From the IMG/VR virus record IMGVR_UViG_3300027763_000040, positions 1-64,000 of that record: a DNA stretch of 64,000 bases; one strand, 5' to 3'. The notes below the pieces were generated by a model. It did no database searches, was not told the origin of the DNA, and worked only from the letters and a program-made list of their open reading frames with translations. The DNA is from a virus. Of the stretch, positions 18,438-20,174 are shown piece after piece. Within the stretch, counting starts at the first letter, position 1, and the number at the start of each line of letters is the position of its first letter. A program made the translations under genes and the position numbers.

Positions 18438-18444
18438 TATTTAG
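18438..18444 (-). promoter_or_regulatory. Late promoter variant
   Basis: CTAAATA upstream of the ATG at 18405. Confidence 0.55.
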
Positions 18445-18743
18445 TTAGTCAGATCCTCCCCATTAAACTCCATAATGTCTTCTGGTAGGTCTTGTGGATT
18501 CTCTAAATCCATCTCAAATAATAGTGGATGTGCCTCCTCATCTATCAAATAGAAAGAGTTCTTAAATAAATCTTCTGGTTCAAATGATCTTTGTTTGTCT
18601 GCCAATTTACACAGTTCTTTATCGTATAAGTGCCCGTCTGGTAATTCATCAAATGTAAAGGGAACTTGATTTATGAAATACATTTTGACTATCATACTAC
18701 CTTCATTATACCAGCAGTATGCTTGACTGATTTGATAAGACAT
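18441..18743 (-). CDS. Hypothetical protein
   Basis: 100-aa acidic ORF preceded by ATAAATA at 18764-18770. Confidence 0.7.
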   Translation of the reverse strand: MSYQISQAYCWYNEGSMIVKMYFINQVPFTFDELPDGHLYDKELCKLADKQRSFEPEDLFKNSFYLIDEEAHPLLFEMDLENPQDLPEDIMEFNGEDLTN

Positions 18744-18766: not shown

Positions 18767-19231
18767 TTATTTTTTGTTTTTACCCCTATAAGTATCAGTC
18801 TGTGCGTGACAATTGGGGCACAGGATACGAAGGTTTTCTAAACGATTATCGTGATGGTTGCCGTTTATGTGATCTAATTCTATAGGTGTTGGTTGATTAT
18901 TCCATTCAGATATACCACAGCACTCACACTTATGTTCTTTGAGACCTTCTGTAATTAATCTTTTTTTAAGTTTATGTGATTGATGATGAGAGTTTTCAGT
19001 TAAGTAGTATTCTATTGGTCTTTTAGGTCCAAGTGTTTTTCCTTTACTCCAACCTTGCCCATTAGCACCATCAGCAAGACTAATGCCAAGTTTTTCTATT
19101 CTTTGTTGGGCAACTTTGTAATTACCACCTGCTTCTTTTAATCCAAGTTTTGATAATACTTGTCTTACGCTAGTAGATGTTTTTACTGCTTCAATAAATT
19201 GATTATCAGTGTAAGTTCTGGGTTTTCCCAT
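18767..19231 (-). CDS. Free-standing HNH endonuclease (putative homing endonuclease)
   Basis: CECC...ELDHINGNHHDNRLENLRILCPNCH, with a helical N-terminal domain that may bind DNA. Confidence 0.9.
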   Translation of the reverse strand: MGKPRTYTDNQFIEAVKTSTSVRQVLSKLGLKEAGGNYKVAQQRIEKLGISLADGANGQGWSKGKTLGPKRPIEYYLTENSHHQSHKLKKRLITEGLKEHKCECCGISEWNNQPTPIELDHINGNHHDNRLENLRILCPNCHAQTDTYRGKNKK

Positions 19232-19240
19232 AATAGTAAC

Positions 19241-19272
19241 GGCAAACTCTATTATTATTTATAAAATTTGCC
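19241..19272 (-). promoter_or_regulatory. Late promoter TATAAATA (19256-19263) inside a 12-bp RNA hairpin upstream of the HNH gene
   Basis: GGCAAATTTTAT-AAATAATA-ATAGAGTTTGCC, ending 9 nt before the HNH ATG. Confidence 0.7.
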
Positions 19273-19279
19273 TTTTAAG

Positions 19280-19562
19280 TGCGAGTAGGGAGACTTGAAC
19301 TCCCACGGGCAATGCCCAACAGATTTTCTTACCACTATAGTTTTCACTACCCTTTCGGTTTGTGGTCTGGACTATACCTTCACCATACCTTTCGGTTTAG
19401 GTGTTCCCCGTCTAGTCTCTACACCTTCAAGATTTCTCTTGCTTGGCTCGGTATTGCCATTTTACAGGTTTCACCGAATTTGAGGAATTACACTCATAAA
19501 GTTTCCTAAATGAGGCTCAATTTTCATAAGTCTGGTGTGTCTACCGATTCCACCATACTCGC
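19280..19562 (-). tRNA. trnL: tRNA-Leu(UAA) interrupted by an intron; exons 19562-19528 and 19327-19280
   Basis: 5' exon GCGAGTATGGTGGAATCGGTAGACACACCAGACTT and 3' exon AAAATCTGTTGGGCATTGCCCGTGGGAGTTCAAGTCTCCCTACTCGCA. Perfect 7-bp acceptor stem, long variable arm, spliced anticodon loop CU-UAA-AA. Confidence 0.95.
19328..19527 (-). ncRNA. Group I intron (IC3-like), 200 nt, no ORF
   Basis: Follows exon U and ends in G. Guide GAG pairs with exon CUU. Core elements: P AAATTCGGTGAAACC, Q AATACCGAGCC, R GTAGAGACTAGACGG, S AAGGTATAGTCC; P7 is GACTA/TAGTC. Confidence 0.93.
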
Positions 19563-19572
19563 TTGTGAGACT

Positions 19573-19601
19573 ATTATAACTCAAAGAATCATAATAGTCA
19601 A
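19573..19601 (-). promoter_or_regulatory. Sigma70-type promoter directly upstream of tRNA-Leu
   Basis: TTGACT-17 nt-TATAAT, overlapping a 14-bp inverted repeat (GACTATTATGATTC/GAGTTATAATAGTC). Confidence 0.7.
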
Positions 19602-19602
19602 G

Positions 19603-19676
19603 TGCTCCTTGTCGGGATCGAACCGACCTTAGCCGAATTATGAGTTCGGTGCTTTCAACCAGAGAGCTAAAGGAGC
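19603..19676 (-). tRNA. tRNA with CAU anticodon, probably Ile2 (lysidine-modified); elongator Met not excluded
   Basis: GCTCCTT/AAGGAGC acceptor stem, CCGAA-CTCATAA-TTCGG anticodon arm, GGTTCGATCCC T arm. C4-G69 and C5-G68 pairs are TilS-type determinants. Confidence 0.85.
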
Positions 19677-19706: not shown

Positions 19707-19794
19707 TAGTCGCCCAGGGTATCGAACCCTGCCAAAGGCCCTAATCTGGGGCAAAGGACTTATAAGATCCCTCTGAACACCTGTTCTGACGACC
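19707..19794 (-). tRNA. Atypical tRNA-like RNA with UAU anticodon (nominally Ile)
   Basis: GGTCGTC/GGCGACT-A acceptor stem, CAGGG-TTCGATA-CCCTG T arm, CTTATAA loop. D-loop is only 4 nt and the variable arm is long. Confidence 0.7.
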
Positions 19795-19811: not shown

Positions 19812-19985
19812 CTACTGAGCTTCGTTATTCTCCTCGGTGTGTATTCGTATAAGGTCGTCATCTGCGGGCATCATCACTGCTGCCTGCCCGTTTTCGTTGA
19901 CGATACCTAAATGTTCTCCATTTTCAACTCTTTCCACAAGTTCGTCGAATCTTTCTTGAAACTCTTCCACTGTAAAAACTTCCAT
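19812..19985 (-). CDS. 57-aa protein resembling the Phd/YefM antitoxin N-terminal fold, missed by the ORF track
   Basis: MEVFTVEEFQERFDELVERVENGEHLGIVNENGQAAVMMP... follows the Phd pattern of helices plus a beta hairpin. Confidence 0.65.
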   Translation of the reverse strand: MEVFTVEEFQERFDELVERVENGEHLGIVNENGQAAVMMPADDDLIRIHTEENNEAQ

Positions 19986-19988
19986 TTC

Positions 19989-20174
19989 TTAAAAGGGATT
20001 ACTGTATGCAAGGCAATCTTCACTTACCCGAGTGCGAACTACTTCCAGTACGCTCATAAACTGGTCAACAGTCTCACATTCTACAACTTGTTCTTTACCT
20101 TCACTCGAATAAAGATAGAACTTTCGTGCAAGAGTATCGACAACGCAACGACTCAAGAACTCTTCGGTTTGCAT
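19989..20174 (-). CDS. Small hypothetical protein
   Basis: 61 aa, first gene after the promoter at 20200-20255. Confidence 0.7.
   Translation of the reverse strand: MQTEEFLSRCVVDTLARKFYLYSSEGKEQVVECETVDQFMSVLEVVRTRVSEDCLAYSNPF

Follow-up and report, generated by a model that had tools for sequence, protein, structure and literature searches.

A group I intron and a free-standing HNH endonuclease gene at the tRNA-Leu(UAA) gene of a T4-like cyanophage: separately mobile elements with a possible common target

How does a group I intron that encodes no protein spread between phages, and can a free-standing endonuclease gene close by help it to do so? This question is raised by a stretch of 64,000 nucleotides (nt), here called the window, which is the first 64 kb of a 98.9-kb virus record (IMG/VR record IMGVR_UViG_3300027763_000040, approximately 47% complete). 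The gene content identifies the phage as a T4-like cyanophage, its nearest named relatives being the Synechococcus phages S-SRM01, S-SCSM1 and S-SKS1. Its gene for tRNA-Leu(UAA), trnL, is split by a group I intron devoid of an open reading frame (ORF), and is followed at a short distance by an intact gene for an HNH endonuclease. In an initial annotation, it was proposed that the HNH enzyme cuts intron-less trnL(UAA) alleles, that the intron gives immunity, and that the two spread together. Comparison with related loci (designated below by L and a number) showed that the intron and the HNH gene are separately mobile. The best reading of the locus, to which we assign a probability of roughly 0.5, is that trnL(UAA) is the common target of two selfish elements, each mobile by itself, and that the intron probably protects the tRNA gene and is sometimes co-converted.

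All the parts described in the initial annotation, namely the promoter, the split trnL, the 48-bp spacer and the intact HNH gene on the same strand, were found in place. They lie on the minus strand, so that the order reads from 19601 down to 18767, and are listed below together with the gene that closes the insertion slot of the HNH gene.

19573-19601, minus strand: sigma70-type promoter, TTGACT-N17-TATAAT, 11 of 12 consensus positions, between tRNA-Met and trnL
19528-19562, minus strand: 5' exon of tRNA-Leu(UAA), 3' end ...CCAGACUU, last base U34
19328-19527, minus strand: ORF-less group I intron (bacterial tRNA type, Leu.3Ug), 200 nt, between U34 and A35, with a terminal G
19280-19327, minus strand: 3' exon of tRNA-Leu(UAA), starting AAAAUCUGU... 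and running to the discriminator A; CCA not encoded
19232-19279, minus strand: spacer between trnL and the HNH gene, 48 bp
19241-19272, minus strand: 12-bp hairpin in the spacer, carrying the T4-type late promoter TATAAATA at 19263-19256
18767-19231, minus strand: free-standing HNH endonuclease gene, 154 amino acids (aa), intact, with an N-terminal GGNY-motif domain and a C-terminal Cys4/HNH domain
18774-19279, minus strand: HNH cassette, an insertion of about 506 bp, exactly from the trnL 3' end to the promoter/start of the 100-aa gene
18441-18743, minus strand: conserved 100-aa gene (phrog_4134, PHROG annotation: unknown function), bounding the HNH insertion slot on the right

Upon joining of the exons (removal of 19527-19328), ARAGORN returned an 83-nt tRNA-Leu(taa), while displacement of the 3' splice site by a single base gave no valid tRNA-Leu. 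In the raw window, the same program did not call the trnL gene. Its intron mode proposed a tRNA-Tyr(ata) with a 198-nt intron, which was rejected for its wrong splice point; the rule of a U at -1 and a terminal G, with a 200-nt excision, gives the canonical tRNA-Leu(taa). Because tRNA finders miss intron-split genes of this kind, the tRNA sets of phages are under-counted.

The intron matches the Rfam model RF00028 with 62.1 bits (gathering score 50; E 1.9e-14), the full model (1-253) being covered. A U is present at position -1 (5' exon ...GACUU, with a wobble pair in P1), the intron ends with ...GGUAAG, and an internal guide GAG follows the P1 loop. As initially annotated, the intron is ORF-less, in that no ORF of at least 40 aa is present on its own strand. 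In an alignment of 20 related ORF-less copies, compensatory changes were observed in 21 of the 45 predicted pairs; judged by this covariation, the trnL intron is a real, conserved ribozyme-type element under structural selection, which is expected to splice.

The HNH protein was assigned by its PHROG match (phrog_10822, 'HNH endonuclease', E 4.7e-47) and by its conserved motif, because the Pfam matches alone, HNH_3 (20.4, cut-off 24.8) and HNH (19.0, cut-off 21.4), are both slightly below threshold. Residues C102, C105, H121, N133, C138, C141 and H142 are invariant across 76 relatives, and the N-terminal GGNY-motif domain presumably binds DNA. A search of the sequences of solved structures gave no match to the protein at E values up to 1. 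The late promoter TATAAATA is found without change in 47 of 61 distinct regions upstream of HNH genes, and the arms of the hairpin covary. The layout of a late promoter within a hairpin is known for I-TevI-III, segB and the mobE of Aeh1, where it concerns the control of homing endonucleases (PMC2988022).

Alignment with HNH-less relatives (L213, L206 and L257) revealed a clean empty site. When L232 and L024 are compared, the HNH cassette is 97-100% identical from -44 to +513 and the flanks only 35-77%; the 100-aa genes are about 75% identical, and the trnL alleles, one of 74 nt and intron-less, the other of 85 nt and with the intron, cannot be aligned. The HNH gene is present or absent at one exact site, and its cassette stays nearly identical where the flanks have diverged, as is characteristic of a homing gene; these alignments indicate that the cassette is a discrete mobile unit with recent horizontal spread. 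Among T4-like phages, the closest HNH (L005, 85% identity) lies beside an intron-less trnL. An 846-bp module comprising promoter, trnL with its intron, spacer and HNH gene is common to L006-L008 at 87.5% identity, and the flanks of L006-L008 are unrelated to the window.

The intron also occurs in diverse surroundings. Copies 87-98% identical to it are present in many phage contigs, and an exact search for a 21-nt core motif retrieved at least 118 phage contigs, most of the copies being at the same trnL(UAA) position. The intron was found in at least six different trnL exon backgrounds; the 5' exon is identical in several related loci, and L247 has a natural intron-less allele with the exons of this phage. 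It is 98% identical to the copy in L045, while the HNH proteins of the two loci are only 67% identical, and equally 98% identical to the intron of the HNH-less L213, whose 100-aa gene has 91% aa identity. The DNA matches among named phages are in huge uncultured phages, in the capsid gene of Pelagibacter phage HTVC120P and in Agrobacterium phage Atu_ph07.

Three samples of loci were drawn from IMG/VR, anchored respectively on the HNH gene (80 of 386 HNH loci), on the intron (80 of at least 118 loci), and on the 100-aa gene (80 of 352 loci), the last one being blind to both traits. It should be noted that counts pooled over the three samples are biased by the sampling and were used for the comparison of alleles only, not for a 2x2 test. 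Among the 75 loci of the HNH-anchored sample with the gene 45-55 bp after trnL(UAA), the tRNA gene is intron-less in 58 and carries the intron in 17; of the syntenic cyanophage loci to which the intron-anchored sample was limited, 11 have the HNH gene and about 19 do not. All four states exist in the 100-aa-gene sample: both elements at 2 loci, the intron only at 10, the HNH gene only at 10-14 (4 of the 14 are partial matches at another position) and neither at 47-51. The ten closest relatives of the window according to the 100-aa gene (92-95% aa identity) have neither element. On the tree of the flanking genes, 11 changes of state were counted for the HNH gene, compared with 9 for the intron.

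The idea that the intron and the HNH gene spread as one unit is thus only partly supported and does not pass the test that the initial annotation set for it, their distributions being largely independent. Several of the results weigh also against any partnership between the two, and thus against part of the reading favoured here. No overall association was detected in the 100-aa-gene sample (odds ratio 0.7-1.0, p = 1), and in nine independent HNH contrasts the intron is unchanged in approximately 7, changes the same way in approximately 2 and the other way in approximately 0. On the HNH tree, the state of the intron changes at least 12 times, and identical trnL alleles are found both with and without the HNH gene. 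Finally, the tract of near-identity between L232 and L024 stops exactly at the 3' end of trnL, the 3' exon not being co-converted; because the tract excludes this exon, a break near the insertion site of the cassette fits better than one at the anticodon. Considering the absence of an overall association and the fact that each element has its own transfer tracts, the intron and the HNH gene are separate mobile modules, joined at the 3' end of trnL.

Real comparative support was obtained, in contrast, for a tie between the HNH family and trnL(UAA). In 75 of the 80 loci of the HNH-anchored sample, trnL(UAA) precedes the gene by 45-55 bp, and family members follow trnL at a distance of about 50 bp in 102 loci. 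Homologues of full length (39-57% aa identity) occur in other placements, all with the site RGACTT|AAAATC, where the bar stands for the U34|A35 junction. Some are free-standing just upstream of an intron-bearing trnL (L082, L121, L140, L186); others are inside the intron, either in loop L1, between the 5' splice site and the internal guide (L103, L108, L164, L172, L163), or in loop P6, in sense (L089, L098, L119, L167) or antisense orientation (L084, L079). Endonucleases encoded by introns, by all precedent, cut intron-less alleles near the insertion site. Since homologues are encoded in this same intron, the target of the HNH lineage is very probably the anticodon region of trnL(UAA), as the initial annotation had supposed in making trnL the substrate of the enzyme.

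Nuclease genes of other kinds were observed in the same tRNA cluster. In L256 (also in L258-L262, L265 and L267), the insertion slot is occupied by about 450 bp with an unrelated 112-aa ORF, which shows CxxC...HH...CxxCH motifs (HNH/Endo VII-like), has its own TATAAATA and lies beside an intron-less trnL with a permissive anticodon arm. S-SRM01 (L001, NC_070963.1 33079-33498) has a different HNH gene between tRNA-Ile and tRNA-Met; this gene was considered as a homologue of the HNH gene of the window and rejected, no significant similarity being found. The gap between tRNA-Ile and tRNA-Met also contains partial HNH matches (43-51% aa identity) in four metagenomic loci (L214, L227, L254, L279). 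Because unrelated HNH or HNH-like genes occupy both the slot and this gap, the tRNA cluster is a general landing pad for nuclease genes.

As for immunity, the signal depends on the sequence of the anticodon arm. Every intron-bearing allele has the site RGACTT|AAAATY, as pairing in P1 would lead one to expect. In the HNH-anchored sample, such permissive sites are interrupted in 17 cases and uninterrupted in 3, while the HNH-less loci of the 100-aa-gene sample have 10 interrupted and 18 uninterrupted ones. The resulting odds ratio is about 10 (p = 0.001 by loci, 0.06 by distinct alleles), and is to be read with reserve, because the comparison spans differently anchored samples, ignores shared ancestry and emerged after several site widths had been tried. 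The three exceptions (L010, L068 and L070), uninterrupted beside an HNH gene and to that extent adverse to immunity, all carry the variant arm CTCAGACTT|AAAATCTGA; the other 55 intron-less alleles linked to the HNH gene have different anticodon stems, for example GACCTT|AAAAGT in L232. A shortage of the uninterrupted permissive arm beside the HNH gene would follow if such an arm, in the genome that encodes the enzyme, were not tolerated. The rarity of uninterrupted permissive arms next to the HNH gene thus agrees with the proposed immunity. At most HNH loci, however, trnL is without the intron, so that self-immunity of HNH-bearing phages does not in general depend on it.

The mechanism that we envisage combines these observations as follows. 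The trnL(UAA) of the phage itself is interrupted in its anticodon loop (U34|A35) by a small group I intron without an ORF, and excision of the intron from the precursor would be required for a working tRNA. A cassette of about 0.5 kb, with a free-standing HNH homing endonuclease presumably expressed late, is inserted exactly at the 3' end of trnL. What the enzyme recognises is most likely trnL in co-infecting phages, its anticodon arm RGACUU|AAAAUC included, and it would cut there or nearby; repair off the HNH-bearing genome would then copy the cassette, and sometimes also the intron 48-250 bp away. In the window, the intron splits this anticodon-arm sequence and probably protects the resident gene in this way; HNH-bearing, intron-less relatives have variant anticodon stems instead. 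Expression of the HNH gene is probably confined to the late phase: transcripts of the tRNA genes would start from the sigma70-type promoter, and the hairpin of the spacer holds the late promoter TATAAATA, so that late transcripts would be without the 5' arm of this hairpin.

A broader view may be ventured, tentatively and at a little less than even odds, according to which the locus is one frame of a series on how a group I intron gains a homing endonuclease. An HNH lineage that has the anticodon arm of trnL(UAA) as its specific target would be seen downstream of the gene, upstream of it, and in L1 and P6 of the intron (either orientation); in T4-like cyanophages, the HNH enzyme would mobilise the intron in trans, and the intron would shield the tRNA gene in return. 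Such a system would be without precedent among phage tRNA genes.

It is also conceivable that the intron and the HNH gene are simply independent neighbours. The HNH protein would then be an ordinary free-standing homing endonuclease for the junction between trnL and the 100-aa gene, or for the 3' part of trnL, and the insertion of its own gene would destroy the site; the intron would be irrelevant to immunity and would be passed on only by inheritance and through the recombination that T4-like phages generally undergo during co-infection, and its co-occurrence with the HNH gene would be due to chance. Much of what was found agrees with this: the overall independence of the two distributions, the clean empty sites with cassette edges exactly at the trnL 3' end, the prevalence of HNH loci beside intron-less trnL, the occurrence of the same trnL alleles with and without the HNH gene, and the unrelated nuclease genes in the slot (L256 group) and in the gap between tRNA-Ile and tRNA-Met (S-SRM01). 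However, homologues placed in the same intron in three ways, and upstream of trnL, would be left unexplained, and so would the scarcity of uninterrupted permissive anticodon arms in HNH-bearing genomes; we regard this explanation as the main rival, though less likely than the shared-target reading. An intron that hitch-hikes without giving immunity, after the manner of T4 MobE and the defunct I-TevIII intron, appears unlikely. In that case, HNH would cut near its own insertion site in HNH-less phages, and the intron, 48 bp from the edge of the cassette, would be dragged along in co-conversion tracts. The positive overall association that this predicts was not observed, the L232/L024 tract leaves out trnL altogether, and the site-conditional pattern is not accounted for, even though the two elements are physically close, the 846-bp module is common to L006-L008, the intron shows a weak tendency to follow the HNH gene in independent pairs (2.2 vs 0.1 of 9), and a precedent exists (PMC2790892).

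Also to be weighed is a passive intron, captured with a host trnL, next to an HNH protein whose role is not homing but, for example, DNA packaging or degradation of host DNA. The classical cyanobacterial trnL(UAA) intron does occupy the same U34|A35 position (Williams 2020 preprint). Yet the nearest DNA matches of the present intron are in phages, and near-identical introns are found in different exon backgrounds; moreover, the homing-gene signature of the cassette speaks against a different role for the HNH protein, as does its position, which tracks trnL and not packaging genes. We consider this explanation very improbable. The reading of two separately mobile selfish elements with a common target in trnL(UAA) is the one that we retain.

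Several components of this reading are already known, namely collaborative homing (psbA/F-CphI), trans homing (MobE), endonucleases of tRNA clusters (SegB) and the bacterial trnL(UAA) intron. Collaborative homing of the psbA intron of cyanophage S-PM2 with F-CphI was reportedly described by Zeng, Bonocora and Shub in 2009; the F-CphI family is the subject of a further paper (PMC6083498). As in that system, an ORF-less group I intron in a cyanophage gene is found here beside a free-standing endonuclease gene, and the same idea applies, of an enzyme that attacks alleles without the intron while the intron keeps its own copy safe. The host gene is, however, a tRNA gene and not a protein gene, the enzyme is a Cys4-HNH protein (phrog_10822) and not of the Endo VII type, the HNH gene is mostly beside intron-less genes, the overall distributions are independent, and cleavage is here a prediction. 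The pair formed by T4 MobE and the defunct I-TevIII intron is similar (PMC2790892) in having a free-standing HNH enzyme near an intron unable to move alone, with mobilisation by co-conversion; it differs in that no overall association was found here, and that the transfer tract of one pair excludes the intron-bearing gene. The analogy with T4 SegB drawn in the initial annotation is a loose one. SegB, too, is a free-standing homing endonuclease encoded among phage tRNA genes, and its gene is preceded by a hairpin and a late promoter; it belongs, however, to the GIY-YIG enzymes, its target being a tRNA intergenic region (PMC2988022), and no intron is involved.

The phage intron resembles the cellular trnL(UAA) intron in its insertion point, in having U at -1 and G as its last base, and in its compact core, which is of the tRNA-intron type; it differs in being carried by a phage tRNA gene, and in that related copies encode or adjoin an HNH gene. 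To the best of our knowledge, no endonuclease has been described for the cellular trnL intron. I-Ssp6803I is said to be encoded in the tRNA-fMet intron of Synechocystis, as described by Bonocora and Shub in 2001, and belongs to the PD-(D/E)xK family. It represents a different enzyme family and a different tRNA, in a cellular host, and is, as far as known, always intron-encoded. According to a 2014 review, every phage intron known at that time interrupted a protein gene, in spite of the many tRNA genes of phages (PMC3984707), and a 2020 survey of tRNA introns covered cellular genomes only (Williams 2020 preprint). In the literature reached, which covered few subscription journals, neither phage tRNA genes with group I introns nor an HNH enzyme specific for trnL were found to be the subject of any paper.

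It has long been asked by what route ORF-less group I introns move, and how homing endonuclease genes came to reside in introns in the first place. We know of only two worked examples in phages, psbA with F-CphI and nrdB with MobE. The present locus and its relatives provide hundreds of natural variants, with four states of presence and absence and five placements of one nuclease family around one 12-nt target, and since these variants are at hand, the hypothesis is directly testable with a few cleavage assays. They also place group I introns in phage tRNA genes, where the 2014 review had reported none. In related phages, the separate movement of intron and HNH gene, with the nuclease family always in or beside trnL, is a record of how such introns may become mobile.

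Additional observations concern the intron. Some copies of its core are in tRNA(CAU), where the 3' exon starts with CATAATC (L117, L130, L131, L133, L142, L149), and further copies (L138, L146, L152; L124, L132) are in other tRNAs and in one protein-coding gene. The exact 21-nt core, GGTATAGTCCAGACCACAAAC, is also present in at least 120 bacterial genomes of many phyla, including Bradyrhizobium, Rhizobium, Herbaspirillum, Acidobacteriota and Patescibacteria (L283-L362); none of the 80 bacterial matches listed is from a cyanobacterium. In L083, the anticodon loop of trnL(UAA) has an insert of only 41 nt at the position of the intron, and an HNH homologue is located divergently upstream (in the minus-strand view, trnL comes about 60 nt after the HNH gene). 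The insert may be a deletion remnant of the intron, leaving a dead tRNA gene.

The promoter of trnL was retained in 54 of 92 distinct spacers whatever the state of intron or HNH gene, and it is therefore trnL's own promoter and not that of the intron/HNH pair. In the form TTGAC(C/T)-N17-TATAAT, it recurs with striking constancy in the spacer between tRNA-Met and trnL of many cyanophages (equivalent spacers of L203-L282). A GACC...GGTC inverted repeat flanks it, and it was unexpected that a tRNA cluster should contain a dedicated promoter.

From 19985 downwards, the minus strand encodes a Phd-like antitoxin, a tRNA-Ile(UAU)-like gene, tRNA-Met, then the promoter, the split trnL, the spacer and the HNH gene, and finally the 100-aa gene and a 2083-aa fibre-like gene. 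The features upstream of the promoter are as follows.

19602-19676, minus strand: tRNA-Met(CAU), part of a conserved Ile-Met-Leu tRNA cluster
19707-19794, minus strand: tRNA-Ile(UAU)-like gene, 88 nt, with a long extra arm, missed by ARAGORN and Rfam in the window
19812-20174, minus strand: Phd/YefM-type antitoxin-like gene (57 aa; 29.1 bits, cut-off 29.8) and DUF7294 gene, directly upstream of the tRNA cluster

An Rfam match to Plastid-ycf2 on the plus strand (19602-19676) was rejected, as it is the antisense of tRNA-Met and below the gathering score. Near-identical copies of the tRNA-Ile(UAU)-like gene in relatives (L010, L013, L015, S-SRM01) were called by ARAGORN as tRNA-Ile(tat) of 87-91 nt, and in other relatives tRNA-Ile has the normal form of 72-75 nt. 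The pair of antitoxin-like and DUF7294 genes is syntenic in S-TIM5 and in many contigs; no toxin partner was seen near the antitoxin-like gene.

A second group I intron is present in the same phage genome, outside the window (G000:C1:96753-96996; L003 1501-1744, minus strand). It interrupts psbA and matches RF00028 with 72.7 bits. On the opposite strand, it is adjoined by an ORF of 132 aa for an endonuclease VII-type protein (phrog_2633; L003 1066-1464, plus strand), which is the published layout of 'collaborative homing' in the F-CphI/psbA system.

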